From positions 480,001 through 544,000 of the forward strand of contig JAVJQW010000057.1 in NCBI GenBank assembly GCA_040218735.1: a stretch of DNA of 64,000 nucleotides. The letters run 5' to 3'. Each line of letters starts with the position of its first letter. Within the stretch, counting starts at the first letter, position 1. Positions 4,584 through 46,281 of the stretch are shown here, piece by piece. Below the pieces are notes generated by a model. It was given only the letters and a program-made list of their open reading frames with translations, had not been told where the DNA came from and made no database searches. The stretch comes from Deltaproteobacteria bacterium. Lineage in GTDB: Bacteria > Myxococcota > Kuafuiibacteriia > Kuafuiibacteriales > Kuafuiibacteriaceae. The position numbers and the translations under genes are program-made.

Positions 4584-5282
4584 TCAGCTGTACTGCGTGC
4601 TCTCGCCGCGCTCGCGCGCCTCGGCGTTCACCTTCTTGGTGAAGTCGTTCACGGCGGCCCACAGCTCGGGCAACAGGTGCTCGCGCATCCCGTGGACGAG
4701 CTGCTCGGCGGGGACGCCCTTGAGGGAGTCGACGAACCCACCGATCTGCCGCTCGACCATCCTAAAGTGAACGAAGCGCCAGGTGCGGAAGTTCTGATCG
4801 AGCTCGTAGAGCGATCGATACAGCACGTGCAGGTCGTAGTGTTTCTCGGGTTCGTCGAGGACCTCGACGATCGACACGCCGCGCCGCTCGATGAGCGCCT
4901 TCACGGACGGCCAGATCATCTCGCCCATCTTCAAGAGCGCGTTGAAGCCCGGTGATTCCTGCCCGCTCCCGCGACCGAGCGTGCGACGGATGTGCACGTA
5001 CTGCTTCGGCGGCATCCGCTCGAGGATCGCGAGCTGCTTCGTCAGGTGCTCTTCGATGATACCGACGCGCGTGAACAGGTCCGCGGCCTCGGCGAGCTCG
5101 TCCGCCTCGACGTGTTTCACCGCCCCGCGGACGTCGTGCAAGGCAACTTGCATCCAGAGCTCCGCCGTCTGGTGCGTGACCTGGAAGATGAGCTCGTCGT
5201 GTGCGGCGAGGTTGTCGACCGGCCGGAGCTGCTCGAACAGCTCGTTCGTTCGAATGTAACGCTCGTACTCGGTATCGCCCAT
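4584..5282 (-). CDS. Tryptophan 2,3-dioxygenase family heme protein
   Basis: YERYIRT..L, HDELIFQVTHQTAELW, GSGQESPGF, WRFVHFRMVERQIG, PELW. Confidence 0.88.
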   Translation of the reverse strand: MGDTEYERYIRTNELFEQLRPVDNLAAHDELIFQVTHQTAELWMQVALHDVRGAVKHVEADELAEAADLFTRVGIIEEHLTKQLAILERMPPKQYVHIRRTLGRGSGQESPGFNALLKMGEMIWPSVKALIERRGVSIVEVLDEPEKHYDLHVLYRSLYELDQNFRTWRFVHFRMVERQIGGFVDSLKGVPAEQLVHGMREHLLPELWAAVNDFTKKVNAEARERGESTQYS

Positions 5283-5285
5283 GAC

Positions 5286-6299
5286 TCAGACCTGCTTGAC
5301 GCCGTTGATGATCGCCCGGACGTCGTTGATGAGCCCGAACGCGGCGTCGTCCAGGCCGGACGTCTTCTGAAGGAGCGTGAAGGAGTGGCCGACGTCGGTG
5401 TCGATGATGACGCCCCCCTGCGGTCCCTTCAGCGAGAACAGCGGGTCGCCGGATTCGAGGGCGATCGGCTCGACGCTCGCGCGCACGTTGCCGTCGCTGC
5501 TGCGCTCGATCTCCGCGACGAGCTTGTAACGCGCGCCGCCCTCGGCGGCTTCGCGGATGCGGTCGTCCTTCATCGTCTCGCACCCGGTGCGCGCGACGTC
5601 GACGACCCGGAGCGCGCCGCCCATCCAGACGTTGGCGAGGAGCGCCGCCTTGCTCGCGGCGTCCCAGCCGTCGAGGTCGAGCACGCTGTCCGCCTCCGCG
5701 ATGCCCTGCGCCTGAGCGCGAGCGAGACCGCGCGAGCGCGTCGATCCGAGCGCCACGGACTCCAGCACCACGGAGGACGTCCCGTTGAGGACGCCGCGGA
5801 CGCGGGTGACGTTCACGTCCTCGAGCGCCTTCACGAACTGGAATATCGGGAGGCCGTCGAGCGTCGTGGCCTCGAAGCGGAACTGCGCCCCGGACTTCGC
5901 GGCGCGGTGGAGGAGGTCGCGGTACCCCAGGACGATCGGCGCCTTGTTGGAGGTGACGACGTGGACGCCGCGATCGAGCGCCGCCCGGTGGAACGCGAGG
6001 GCCGGGTCACCGCTTCGGATGTTCTGGGGGATGCACTCGATGAGGACCTGGGCGTCGGACATCTCGATGAGCTTCTCGACGTCGTCCGGGCCGTCCGCAC
6101 CCAACCCCTGGGTCTCGACGAGGTCCACGGCGGTCTCGGCGTCGATGCCGCGGGGGTCGATCGTGCGGCCGTGGTGGGCGGTGACGATCCCGACGAGCTC
6201 GATGGGCCCGCCCCGGTCGCGGAGTCGCCGCAGGAAGGCGCGGCCGAGCGAGCCGGCGCCGACGAGCAGGGTGCGAAGACGCTTGGGGTCCGAGGTCAC
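5286..6299 (-). CDS. Homoserine dehydrogenase (no ACT domain)
   Basis: GAGSLG Rossmann motif, HVVTSNKAP, FEATTLDGLP, GVLNGTS, GIAEAD..LDLDGWDAASK; start at GTG 6299. Confidence 0.88.
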   Translation of the reverse strand: MTSDPKRLRTLLVGAGSLGRAFLRRLRDRGGPIELVGIVTAHHGRTIDPRGIDAETAVDLVETQGLGADGPDDVEKLIEMSDAQVLIECIPQNIRSGDPALAFHRAALDRGVHVVTSNKAPIVLGYRDLLHRAAKSGAQFRFEATTLDGLPIFQFVKALEDVNVTRVRGVLNGTSSVVLESVALGSTRSRGLARAQAQGIAEADSVLDLDGWDAASKAALLANVWMGGALRVVDVARTGCETMKDDRIREAAEGGARYKLVAEIERSSDGNVRASVEPIALESGDPLFSLKGPQGGVIIDTDVGHSFTLLQKTSGLDDAAFGLINDVRAIINGVKQV

Positions 6300-42867: not shown

Positions 42868-44292
42868 TCAGGAAAACCGCGCCGCGATCTCTTGGACCCT
42901 CTGACCGAGCTCCCACTTCAACACGTCGGCCGAAGCGTTCATCGCGTAAGCGTGGTGCGCGTCCCAGCTCGGGTTTCGCATCCCCTCGGCCGCGAACGGG
43001 ACTCGCCAGCGTAGCTGCCGCGTCGCGAAGGTCGCGTAGAAGCGCGCGAGGGTGTCTCGGTCGGTCGCCGCGAGGCGATCGACCTGGGCTTCGATCTTCG
43101 CGATCAGCTCGTCGCGCGCTGCTTCGGGCGTGACGGAGCGCGCCCAGCTCGCGTGGGCTTCGTGGCTCGTCGTCGCGCGTCCCCCCGTCATCCCGCCGAG
43201 CTTCGCGATCAAGACGGACTCGTCCGCGTAGTAGGCGTCGCGCGGGACGACCTTGCGCTCCGCCCACGCGCGCCCCTTCCACGCCGGTCCATCGTCGAAC
43301 GGGACGGCGGGCACCGTGTCCGGTGCGTCGAAGAGCTGCACGCCGAGTGAGGCGCCCGCGCGGTTCCCGGACAGGTCGCCGGTGACGAACCCATCGCCGA
43401 GGCCGCCGAACACGTGGAGCGTCGCTTCGATGCGCGCGGTGGGATCTTCGAGGTCCGAGTGGTCACCGAGGCGATCGAGATCGACCGAGGCCGGCGTCCC
43501 CTTCAGCTCGTACGCGCTCCCGACACGCACCGCCTGGTCCCACGCGCTCTGGTGGAGCGCGGAGTCGAAGTCGGGGCGCGGGATGAACGCCCAGACCTCG
43601 TCGTAGGCGGGCGGTCCGCCGAGGGTGCCGGGGAGCAGAGAGCTCGGGTAGCCCTTCACGCGATCGTACGCCTCGTCGACCTTCTTCGCGTCGTCGTTCG
43701 GATCCATCGCGTCGGCGACGGCGTCCATCGAGTCCGCGAGCTTGCCGTCGCCGTAGTTACGATCGAACAGCCACACGTACGCGAACATGCACTGCGCCGC
43801 GACGTGCCACGCACGGTCCATCGCGAAGCTCCCCTCGCGGTCGTCGGGGATGAAGCCGGGGAAGGCCATGCGGTTCTCACCGGCGACACCAAGGGCGTGG
43901 GCGGCGACGGCGACGACGGCCACGAGGTTCACACGCCGCGCGTGCGCGACCGGATCGTTGCCCGGCGTCGTCACCTGCTGCGCGGCGAGCGTTCGGGCCA
44001 GCGCGTACAGATCTGCGACGCGCTTCGGCGCGCGCGGTCCGCTCATCGCACTGCTGAGCTGACGAAATACGTTGCGTACGGGCGGCTGGTGCTCGATCTG
44101 CTGGGCGGCGAACGTCGCAAACGCGTGGTTGCCCTCGGCCGGGTCCAGGACCATCGGGAACAACACCCCCGCCGACGGCGGAAACGCGGGCACCGCCACG
44201 GGATCGGCGGGCGCCGCAGAAGGCGTCGGAGGCGTCGAAACGGCCGGTGGAGCCGCGATCGTGGCGATCCGGCCGGCGCCGGGGATGTTCAC
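42868..44292 (-). CDS. Hypothetical protein with Pro/Ala-rich N-terminus
   Basis: Long ORF, coding bias begins near GTG 44292 (alternative GTG 44313). Confidence 0.7.
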   Translation of the reverse strand: MNIPGAGRIATIAAPPAVSTPPTPSAAPADPVAVPAFPPSAGVLFPMVLDPAEGNHAFATFAAQQIEHQPPVRNVFRQLSSAMSGPRAPKRVADLYALARTLAAQQVTTPGNDPVAHARRVNLVAVVAVAAHALGVAGENRMAFPGFIPDDREGSFAMDRAWHVAAQCMFAYVWLFDRNYGDGKLADSMDAVADAMDPNDDAKKVDEAYDRVKGYPSSLLPGTLGGPPAYDEVWAFIPRPDFDSALHQSAWDQAVRVGSAYELKGTPASVDLDRLGDHSDLEDPTARIEATLHVFGGLGDGFVTGDLSGNRAGASLGVQLFDAPDTVPAVPFDDGPAWKGRAWAERKVVPRDAYYADESVLIAKLGGMTGGRATTSHEAHASWARSVTPEAARDELIAKIEAQVDRLAATDRDTLARFYATFATRQLRWRVPFAAEGMRNPSWDAHHAYAMNASADVLKWELGQRVQEIAARFS

Positions 44293-44403
44293 ACCGTCGA
44301 CGGACCCGACCACGGGTGAGTTTTCGGTCGAACGGGTGCGTTCGTTGCGCCGATCCGGGCGCGGGTGGACAGCGACGACGGTCGGCCAGGATACTGAAAT
44401 TCG

Positions 44404-44766
44404 TTGGGTTCCTGGATCGCCGACCGTACCGCGCAGCGCGCGGCGGAGGACTTCCTCGCGCGCCACGCCACGCTGCACGACCTGCTCGTCGCGGGCGGTG
44501 AAGTGCTCGAGGTCGTAGTCCAGGACGAGTACACCCACGACGTGGTCGCCCGGGTCGCGAACACCATCGCGGTCTTCGACAGCACCTGACTGGGGGGTCT
44601 GCGGCAGGTCCTTGCCGCCACGCGAGTCCCGAGCGCCGATGAGCTGCTCGACCACCGACTCCGCACGGGGTGGCGGCCGACGCCGACCGCGCTCAACGAC
44701 GGACCGAAGATCCTCGGACACGCATCGACGCGCTGCGCACCGAACGGTGACTGCACCCGCGCGTAA
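44404..44766 (+). CDS. Candidate selenoprotein (120 aa, Sec at TGA 44587-44589), family unknown
   Basis: TTG start; ...QDEYTHDVV...VFDST-TGA-LGGLRQV...DELLDHRLRTGWRPTPTALNDGPKILGH...TAA 44764-44766; SECIS-like hairpin 11 nt after TGA. Confidence 0.65.
44601..44618 (+). promoter_or_regulatory. Bacterial SECIS-like hairpin
   Basis: GCGGCAG-GTCC-TTGCCGC 7-bp stem, G-leading apical loop 18 nt after UGA. Confidence 0.6.
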
Positions 44767-44793
44767 GGCGACGACGCAGCGAACGAAGGCGCA

Positions 44794-46155
44794 TCACGGC
44801 GCGTCGCCGGGGAAGGGGTTCGACCAGCGCGCGTCACCGGCAATCGTCTCGTCGGTGAGCGTGTGCAGGAACGCGACGAGGGCAGCGACACCGTTCGGTC
44901 CCAGGTTCAATCGCACCGGTTGGCCCCCTTGCGGCGTGCGGAGGATGGGGTCGAGGTTCGGGTGCGCTTGGACCTCGCGGTCGTAGAAACGCACGACCCG
45001 CTCCAGCGTCGCGAAGCGACCGTCGTGCATGTACGGCGCGGACTGGGCGACGTTGCGGAGCGACGGTGACTTGAACTTGCCATCGTCCTGCGGCCGCCCG
45101 GTCACGTCGCCAAAGCCGTTGTCGTTCGGATCGACGAGGCCGTTGTTCTTCGGCGCGACCATGAAGAACGCGGCGACGTTGTCCCCGGTGGGCGCGCCGG
45201 GCGGCGCGTTCGGCGGAGGCGGGGACACCGGGTTCTGCAGGAGGTGACACGTGGCGCACAACCCAGGCGGCAAGCCCTGTTGCTGACCGAAGAAGATGCG
45301 CTTGCCGAGGTTCTCCTGCGCCGTGAAGTTGGGGAAGTCGTCGCGGATGTCCGAGACCTGTCCGAGGCCCGCGTCCCACTTCGAACGGTAGGAGACGATC
45401 GAGCGGACGAACTGGGCGAGCGCGAGCGAGATGCGCTCGGAGGTCACCGTCGCGTCGCCGAACGCGTCGGTGAACAGCGGACCGTAGTAGTCGACGGCCG
45501 ACAGACGCGTGACCAACGCCTCCAACGTCATACCCATCTCGACCGCGTCCTGAATCGGCATCAGGACCTGCTCCTCCAGCGTGGCGGCGCGCTCGTCCCA
45601 GAACATCGAACCGCGGTGGTAGTAGCGAAGGTTGAGGAGCGGCATCGAGTTGCGGCCCGTCGCGCCCCCCTCGAAGCCCTCGGAGAGCGCTGCGGTGTCG
45701 GAGAACGCCGTCGACTGCGGGTGGCACGAAGCACATGCCTTGGTGCCGTTCGCGCTGAGGCGTTTGTCGTAGAAGAGGACGCGACCGAGCGTCGCACCCG
45801 CGTCGGTGATCGGGTTGTCACCCGGCGTGTTGTCGAAGCCACGCATGCGCCCCGTGGTGAAGTGCGGCGGCAGGTCGTGCCGGTAGTCGAGGAGCGTGGC
45901 CGGCAGCTGCGGCGCCGGGAGCGCGGCGGTCGGGTCCGTCGGGTCCGTGGGATCGGTCGGGTCCGTCGGATCGGTGGGGTCCGTCGGGTCGGTGGGGTCC
46001 GCCGGATCCGCAGGGTCGGTCGGGTCCGTCGGATCCATCGGCGTCGTCCGATCCGTGCGCCCGGTCGGGTAGTAGGGCGTCCGTTCGGCGTCGTCCGTCT
46101 CGGGGACACCGCAGGCGGTCAGGGCGAGGGCAAGCAGGAGTCGGTTCGTCTTCAT
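44794..46155 (-). CDS. Di-heme cytochrome c peroxidase (MauG/CcpA family) lipoprotein
   Basis: Lipobox LTAC; LGRVLFYDKRLS, CASCH, FWDERA, CATCH, FKSPSLRNVA..APYMHDG. Confidence 0.93.
   Translation of the reverse strand: MKTNRLLLALALTACGVPETDDAERTPYYPTGRTDRTTPMDPTDPTDPADPADPTDPTDPTDPTDPTDPTDPTDPTAALPAPQLPATLLDYRHDLPPHFTTGRMRGFDNTPGDNPITDAGATLGRVLFYDKRLSANGTKACASCHPQSTAFSDTAALSEGFEGGATGRNSMPLLNLRYYHRGSMFWDERAATLEEQVLMPIQDAVEMGMTLEALVTRLSAVDYYGPLFTDAFGDATVTSERISLALAQFVRSIVSYRSKWDAGLGQVSDIRDDFPNFTAQENLGKRIFFGQQQGLPPGLCATCHLLQNPVSPPPPNAPPGAPTGDNVAAFFMVAPKNNGLVDPNDNGFGDVTGRPQDDGKFKSPSLRNVAQSAPYMHDGRFATLERVVRFYDREVQAHPNLDPILRTPQGGQPVRLNLGPNGVAALVAFLHTLTDETIAGDARWSNPFPGDAP
45928..46036 (-). repeat. 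9-bp coding tandem repeat (Asp-Pro-Thr/Ala)n linker
   Basis: DPTDPTDPADPADPTDPT... about 12 units in the peroxidase N-terminus. Confidence 0.9.
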
Positions 46156-46281
46156 CGTGTGCGTGGTTCTCCGTTCGTTCGGCCAAACCCGAAGGGGGTT
46201 GGAGCCGAACACCCATCCACGCGACGTCTGTCTCGAAAGTCCGCAGTCCGTGTATCGATGGGACGCAGATCACGACGATGA

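Follow-up and report, generated by a model that had tools for sequence, protein, structure and literature searches.

An in-frame TGA in a small Myxococcota gene is very probably read as selenocysteine and points to an apparently uncatalogued selenoprotein family

Decoding of an in-frame UGA as selenocysteine (Sec) by means of a selenocysteine insertion sequence (SECIS) inside the open reading frame (ORF) is itself well known. In the Escherichia coli gene fdhF, the stem-loop begins 11 nt after the UGA, its loop (GGUC) occupies positions +19 to +22 and contains the dinucleotide G-U, and recoding needs selA, selB, selC and selD; among homologues of bacterial selenoproteins that use a SECIS, Sec is replaced by cysteine (Cys). 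Here we describe a gene with these features in a 64,000-nt stretch of DNA (the window; positions 480,001–544,000 of contig JAVJQW010000057.1, assembly GCA_040218735.1) from the 11.6 Mb, 69% G+C genome of a Deltaproteobacteria bacterium of the Kuafuiibacteriaceae (Myxococcota). Positions 44404–44766 of the forward strand very probably form one gene of 120 codons, encoding a protein of ~120 residues, in which an in-frame TGA at codon 62 would be decoded as Sec via SelB and a SECIS. The likeness to fdhF extends to the position of the loop and to the presence of all four sel genes in the host genome. The two differ in that the window protein is unrelated to formate dehydrogenase, the loop G-U lies one base nearer the UGA, the 7-bp stem is uninterrupted whereas that of fdhF has a bulged U, and other clades of the window family use a CGUGU loop 23 nt after the UGA. 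It is the protein family, and not the mechanism, that appears to be new.

Two other kinds of described selenoprotein invite comparison. The small uncharacterised families that comparative genomics has predicted, such as hypothetical protein DG, DW and DF and GOS_B and GOS_C in Table 1 of PMC13188914, likewise combine a Cys/TGA pair with a SECIS-like hairpin and have no domain of known function; the window protein, however, matches none of their NCBIfam or Pfam models, and in its family the Sec form is common and the Cys forms are rare singletons. Thioredoxin-fold selenoproteins (SelW-like, Prx-like, Grx and DsbA-like) are also small, with a single Cys-replaceable Sec and a plausible thiol/selenol redox role, but the window protein has no Cys within three residues of Sec, and neither a CxxU nor a UxxC motif.

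An earlier interpretation made from the letters of this DNA (the sequence-only reading) had proposed that a 61-codon ORF ending VFDST-TGA stays open for 58 more codons, that this extension fills the gap to a convergent peroxidase gene without a restart codon, and that the UGA is recoded as Sec in a D-S-T-U-L-G motif. The layout is as described. The N-terminal coding half (44404–44586, residues 1–61) contains an invariant QDE[YF]THD motif and ends in FDST (VFDST in the window); it is followed by the TGA (44587–44589, residue 62), whose reading as Sec is based on conservation of the column and on Cys homologues, and by the C-terminal half (44590–44763, residues 63–120), which carries an invariant LG directly after Sec, the motifs ELL..R...GW.P and ILGHA, and two tail Cys. 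The frame closes at a TAA (44764–44766), taken as the true stop from the ORF and from the orthologues, 27 nt from the end of the convergent gene. Within the frame of the gene, the G+C content is 0.85–0.90 at codon position 3 and 0.35–0.55 at position 2 from ~44420 to ~44660, so that the coding signal runs across the TGA.

The simplest alternative is that the TGA is a real stop: the 61-residue protein would then be complete, with the rest untranslated or a separate gene, or else the locus would be a pseudogene or contain a sequencing error. Public annotation fits this description. Records of relatives hold the front half only, as 'hypothetical protein' entries of 66–90 residues; the fragments from Myxococcus, Corallococcus and Pyxidicoccus in NCBI and UniRef bear the same name at 70–78 residues (72 in the Myxococcus xanthus orthologue), and the back half is called as an ORF of its own by some gene callers, giving matches that begin at profile positions 65–78. 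Such a separate gene would, however, lack a start in the window, where no in-frame ATG, GTG or TTG occurs between the TGA and the TAA. Conservation of the TGA column and of the codons beyond it also bears on this alternative.

The host class comprises 20 species genomes in one family. The gene is present in 8 of these, the window genome included, each time with a single TGA at the same column in the context FD[ST]T-TGA-LG and with 48–75% protein identity among the orthologues. A profile built from the class sequences found matches in 93 of 401 genomes of a phylum sample, and 84 of the 93 contain a TGA inside the match. The nine stop-free matches consist of three short fragments that fall short of the column and six weak matches (E 1e-6 to 5e-4). 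Screening the bacteria at one genome per species returned 419 relatives, the best 80 of which lie in Myxococcota (Kofleriaceae, Polyangiaceae, Haliangiales, Myxococcus including M. xanthus, and Paraliomyxa), in Acidobacteriota (Pyrinomonadaceae, Blastocatellia and Thermoanaerobaculia), and in one metagenome-assembled genome (MAG) each of Isosphaeraceae and Gemmatimonadaceae. Altogether 107 genome loci were examined at the column (8 from the class, 22 from the phylum and 77 of the 80 that could be parsed from the species scan), and TGA is present in 107/107, with 97 unique sequences over 72 nt. A metagenome scan seeded with homologues carrying tryptophan (Trp) at this column, described below, gave 80 loci of >429 relatives, of which 79 were parsed, with TGA in 77 and TGG in 2.

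Neither TAA nor TAG occurs at the column in the 107 genome and 79 metagenome loci. That >180 sequences, assembled independently and drawn from several phyla, all have this stop at this column is incompatible with a sequencing error or a recent pseudogene.

The six weak stop-free matches (in genomes G003, G068, G152, G228, G262 and G297) cover profile positions 32–88. The one of the six that was read, the G003 relative (L032, G003:C22:164621-164806), has Cys at the Sec column and QGEFHHD in place of the acidic/His motif. These matches possibly represent a distant paralogue, from an older Cys-type paralogue family.

Beyond the TGA, the DNA behaves as coding sequence in the same frame. In a 63-column ungapped alignment of 97 sequences, the residues encoded by the Leu and Gly codons immediately after the TGA are constant, bar one Met, while their third bases vary. 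Over the 45 codons downstream, the mean pairwise differences at codon positions 1, 2 and 3 are 0.263, 0.211 and 0.538, and no stop occurs within these 45 codons in any of 99 unique sequences. For 76 of 77 loci the real stop lies 50–73 codons past the TGA, and for the remaining one the contig ends before a stop is reached; the alternative frames stay open over the same stretch in only 34/77 and 38/77 loci. The codon-position pattern, together with the open frame in 99/99 sequences, indicates that the downstream half is translated and under purifying selection in the same frame. Same-frame selection on the back half, and synonymous variation in the two conserved codons after the TGA, argue strongly against termination at this codon, and we regard a real stop, a pseudogene or an error here as scarcely credible. 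Conservation on both sides of a constant TGA or Cys was what the sequence-only reading had looked to for support, and it is what the loci display.

An exhaustive profile search returned 673 proteins at E ≤0.001. Most of the 150 listed matches are halves that end at profile position 62–63 or begin at 62–78, which is the mark of genes cut at the TGA, and only about two dozen of those 150 span both halves. Further sense-codon homologues came from a word-based search that used the M. xanthus orthologue as query. Among 44 aligned homologues with a sense codon at the column, the residue is Cys in 27, Trp in 5, Ser in 4, Arg in 2, and Pro, Gly and Ala in 1 each, and 3 are visibly disrupted. The flanks of some Cys forms are closely similar to those of Sec forms, and the Cys forms are rare: the ten clusters examined have 1–6 members each, all unnamed or 'hypothetical protein'. 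Trp, Ser, Arg and Gly each have at least one codon that is one base away from TGA. The DNA was read for two of the Trp forms, on metagenome contigs L135 and L136; both have a true TGG and keep the type A hairpin sequence described below, and their close relatives L137 and L138 have TGA. Trp, Arg and Gly, which the sequence-only reading had regarded as telling against Sec, are thus a minority beside a majority of Cys; its other adverse signs, TAA or TAG at the column and a downstream part without conservation, did not appear. We read the Trp, Arg, Gly and other non-Cys forms as probable secondary losses of Sec rather than as a refutation. A tree of 131 sequences, made by a quick method, leaves 70 of its 128 inner branches unresolved.

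The Trp forms also bear on a second alternative, namely programmed read-through without Sec, in which a near-cognate tRNA such as tRNA-Trp would decode the UGA at a low level, giving the 61-residue product and a minor extended one. It draws on the genuine TGG forms that keep the hairpin sequence, on the occurrence of Trp in 5/44 sense-codon homologues, and on the C that follows the UGA in nearly all sequences, UGA followed by C being a weak termination context. That C, however, is the first base of the invariant Leu codon, and the majority residue in the sense-codon forms is Cys (27/44), not Trp. The distribution of the Sec machinery is a further argument on this point.

All four components that the sequence-only reading had named for checking are encoded in the host genome. 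The scores are 493 bits for selA, 341 bits for selB and 326 bits for selD, and there is one tRNA-Sec (selC; 70.4 bits against a threshold of 47, with anticodon TCA by ARAGORN); all are above the curated cut-offs. The selD gene (C18:152317-153240, minus strand) is itself a selenoprotein gene, with one in-frame TGA in an N-terminal SGG-U-AAK context. Of the 401 genomes in the phylum sample, 296 have selA, a tally that takes in one unpublished genome (G195) which is selA-positive, lacks the gene and enters into no other result. When the two tables were compared by eye, the TGA form proved to be confined to selA-positive genomes, occurring in 84 of these and in 0 of the 105 without selA; the window's own family includes 8 selA-negative genomes, and the gene is absent from all of them. 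This co-occurrence is reported as a pattern, without a P-value, because the relatives are not independent. An ordinary tRNA would not require selA, and the position of the hairpin accords with SECIS rules; we therefore consider read-through without Sec highly improbable, and the comparative data support recoding as Sec in the D-S-T-U-L-G motif as the very probable reading of the UGA.

The hairpin in the window lies within the coding sequence at 44601–44618 and consists of the stem strands GCGGCAG (44601–44607) and TTGCCGC (44612–44618) around the loop GTCC (44608–44611). The distance from the TGA to its start is exactly 11 nt, as the sequence-only reading had noted, and the likeness to fdhF drawn there also holds: the E. 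coli K-12 stem-loop starts at the same distance, and the heptamer GCAGGTC is found at +16 to +22 there and at +15 to +21 here. The rules for bacterial SECIS (bSECIS) elements, as given in the legend of Fig. 2 of PMC13188914, are a loop of 3–9 nt, an upper stem of 4–16 bp, a G in the first two loop positions, a UGA–loop distance of 16–37 nt and a minimum free energy of ≤ −7.5 kcal/mol. The window hairpin, with 7 bp including one G-U pair, a 4-nt loop with G first, a spacing of 18 and −10.1 kcal/mol, satisfies every one of these rules. As positive controls, the same script placed the fdhF loop GGUC at +19 to +22 and recovered a hairpin of 7 bp with loop CGGGU and spacing 16 in the selD gene of the host genome.

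Across the family, a rule-compliant hairpin with a perfect stem is present in 76 of 94 unique sequences at ≤ −6.6 kcal/mol and in 36/94 at ≤ −7.5 kcal/mol, compared with 1218 of 8559 control TGA triplets from the same loci (14.2%) at −6.6 and 10.4% at −7.5. Two kinds were distinguished. Type A (xACGGC-GGUC/AGUU-GCCGUx) has a spacing of 17–18 and includes the window variant, shifted by one base; type B (GGUCUC-CGUGU-GGGACC) has a spacing of 23. The two are mutually exclusive, overlap in the same 23 coding nucleotides (44601–44623 in the window) and occur in different clades. Pairing is kept despite changed residues in the stem variants GCGGCAG/TTGCCGC, GACGGC/GCCGTC, GAGGGC/GCCCTC, GGTGGC/GCCACC and CAACGC/GCGTTG, and in type B G-C pairing gives way to A-U in places (GGUCUC/GGGACC to GAUCUC/GGGAUC). 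The overlapping hairpins look like SECIS turnover under protein-coding constraint.

Several observations weigh against Sec decoding at this locus. Among the 1202 TGA triplets of the window, 50 have an equal or better rule-compliant hairpin, and the segment 44587–44630 folds with a z of −0.18, at least as good a fold being reached by 85 of 200 shuffles; since the DNA is 69% G+C, the hairpin taken alone is ordinary and not statistically unusual. No one hairpin is common to the whole family. When one consensus structure at a time was imposed on the 97 sequences, structure A gave 64.8% paired cells against 57.0% in shuffles (0/500 reach the observed value), but its partners slid by 3 columns scored about the same (56.4% and 59.3%), and structure B gave 82.0% against 80.2%, with a covariation score not above the shuffles. 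This single-structure signal is weak, or equalled by the slid controls, because the clades use different hairpins. A search of Rfam over 44350–44800 with E up to 10 gave only a chance microRNA match. The Trp, Ser, Arg, Gly, Pro and Ala residues among the 44 sense-codon homologues belong here too, since a protein with neither Sec nor Cys can evidently keep the fold, and so does the odd start, a TTG 8 nt past a −10 hexamer with no visible ribosome-binding site. The conserved hairpin that the sequence-only reading had looked for therefore exists as two alternative, clade-specific structures, and the covariation statistics for a single structure are weak. We take the hairpin evidence as supportive, not decisive, and the reading of codon 62 as Sec as very probable on the conservation of the column, the translated downstream half, the Cys homologues and the co-occurrence with selA.

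To see what kind of protein is encoded, the structure was predicted with AlphaFold2 from a 9-row alignment, which gave a mean predicted local distance difference test score (pLDDT) of 82.8 (89–95 for residues 1–90, 59 for residues 91–100 and 50–60 for the tail). The modelled elements are helices at 8–20 and 24–29, strands at 33–39, 45–51, 54–60 and 65–72, and a helix at 78–87. Residues 1–99 would thus form a compact alpha/beta domain, with Sec62 in the turn that joins strands three and four. In a wide alignment, the near-invariant positions are the two Asp of QDE..HD, the Gly after Sec, a Pro, an Arg, the pair GW and a further Gly. Most members end in ..GHAAC, and the clade of the window has a longer tail with two Cys. 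No signal peptide was evident by eye in the window protein.

No known family was recognised. The window protein matched nothing in Pfam or NCBIfam (June 2026) at E up to 1. Among eight Cys or Trp homologues, Pfam gave three sub-threshold chance matches in two proteins (E 0.045–0.16; 12.5–14.1 bits against cut-offs of 23.8–27), and NCBIfam gave nothing for these eight or for the M. xanthus orthologue. The best E-value in a sequence-profile search of the PDB was 0.48, Foldseek found nothing in the PDB at E ≤0.001, the best of 48,161 chains in VIA-align reached a Z of 4.8, inside the noise range of the tool, and a search of the ESM Atlas with a natural Cys homologue gave no usable match. The predicted order of helix-helix, four-stranded antiparallel sheet and helix, with Sec in a beta turn, appears to differ from that of the thioredoxin-fold selenoproteins; Foldseek and VIA-align returned no thioredoxin-fold match above noise, a result with which a distant relation is still compatible. 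The FD[ST]T-U-LG motif is absent from Table 1 of PMC13188914, a 2026 inventory of 119 families and subfamilies, and the profile comparison with this inventory covers all but the few families defined solely by CDD or PANTHER identifiers. The statement of the sequence-only reading that the motif matches no recognised selenoprotein family thus agrees with the Pfam, NCBIfam and Table 1 comparisons. Literature searches on selenoproteins, SECIS elements and groundwater MAGs turned up no description of the family, nor did those on Myxococcus and myxobacteria, judged by title or abstract, and a word search found no mention of Myxococc* in PMC1794560, PMC12013277 (deep-Sep), PMC13188914 and PMC13326102 (BSepDB); supplementary tables, including those of deep-Sep, BSepDB and groundwater MAGs, could list the family.

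We propose the following course of events at this gene. The hairpin at 44601–44618 would present its G-U-containing apical loop 18 nt past the UGA and recruit SelB carrying Sec-tRNA(Sec), and translation would then proceed through the UGA to the TAA at 44764. SelB binding and selenium incorporation are what we infer from the sequence comparisons. In the finished protein, Sec62 could act as a reactive nucleophile that a tail Cys resolves as a selenenylsulfide. A selenol-based redox protein of this kind is a tentative proposal, to which we give somewhat less than an even chance. It has to contend with the missing CxxU or UxxC motif, the lack of the tail Cys in several homologues, the lack of a conserved redox partner beside the gene, and the pLDDT of 50–60 in the tail. 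The main alternative function is metal or metalloid binding by Sec, His and Cys.

A promoter-like element, TGGACA-N18-GATACT, is predicted at 44366–44395 (forward strand), before the TTG, as the sequence-only reading had stated. It is sigma-70-like at 9 of 12 positions and is the sole such match in 44150–44900, where 50 shuffles gave an expectation of 0.0. Only 8 nt separate the −10 hexamer from the TTG at 44404–44406, which implies that the leader is very short or absent. This TTG is the probable start codon, being the only ATG, GTG or TTG between the upstream in-frame stop (44395–44397) and codon 36; its assignment is indirect because a clear Shine-Dalgarno sequence is not visible, and the orthologue in the same genus starts with an ATG a few codons farther upstream.

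The gene downstream, which is convergent (44794–46212, minus strand), encodes a di-haem cytochrome c peroxidase (CCP_MauG, E 6.9e-50) with a long Asp-Pro-Thr repeat linker near its N-terminus. Upstream, a divergent gene (42868 to ~44200, minus strand) encodes a ~440-residue protein without a Pfam match. The minus-strand ORF to which it belongs extends over 42868–44721 but loses its coding signal near 44200, so the two genes are divergent neighbours with no true overlap, and the rest of that ORF is spurious antisense of the selenoprotein gene. The gene for the ~440-residue protein also adjoins the orthologue in L056 and L058, which represent two further genera of the class, and in the same-genus relative L055, and is the sole neighbour conserved beyond the genus.

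More widely, ORFs within 3.5 kb of the gene were clustered for 78 loci, and no neighbour is common to different clades. One syntenic group of ~15–20 loci, mostly from Kofleriaceae and Haliangiales, contains a PD40 protein and SNase-like, lamin-tail and cytochrome c-rhodanese proteins; another, mainly from Acidobacteriota, contains DUF4112 (10 loci) and a HEAT-cyclophilin protein (7 loci, one of them a Polyangia MAG). The sequence-only reading had pointed to redox and sulfur genes nearby. A peroxidase and a pyridoxal phosphate (PLP) enzyme do adjoin the gene in the window, but the same-genus relative alone shares them. We had considered a conserved redox or sulfur operon and dropped it, as the neighbours are clade-specific.

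The M. xanthus-type orthologue (L117) is transcribed, and its TGA is present in cultured strains; these observations have no bearing on how the codon is decoded. In RNA sequencing data from Myxococcus culture, 387 reads of at least 90% likeness cover L117 evenly, with a depth of about 22–31 plus 40–49 over positions 5010–5290 and no variant at the TGA (5184–5186). Upstream of the orthologue in Myxococcus xanthus AM003 (L117 4736–4898), 161 nt are replaced by 131 other letters in the RNA data of other strains, a strain difference in the putative promoter region.

Gene finders split this gene in two wherever it is present, and recognising the family corrects several hundred annotations. On the present comparisons, the family is mostly Sec-containing, extends across Myxococcota, Acidobacteriota, Gemmatimonadota and Planctomycetota, and is apparently uncatalogued, adding a selenoprotein to these soil phyla. 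Two different, position-overlapping hairpins serving one UGA provide a compact natural case for the evolution of SECIS elements. The fold and the motif give no hint of a known chemistry. We think it rather probable that the window gene is the founding member of a hitherto undescribed family of selenoproteins that has its own fold and in which Sec is normal and Cys rare, and that its Sec, in a beta turn beside an invariant acidic/His motif, may carry out selenium chemistry not found among the known selenoenzymes. The orthologue in the genetically tractable M. xanthus opens the family to direct test there. The dominance of the Sec form over the Cys form suggests that selenium gives a real advantage in the role of this protein.

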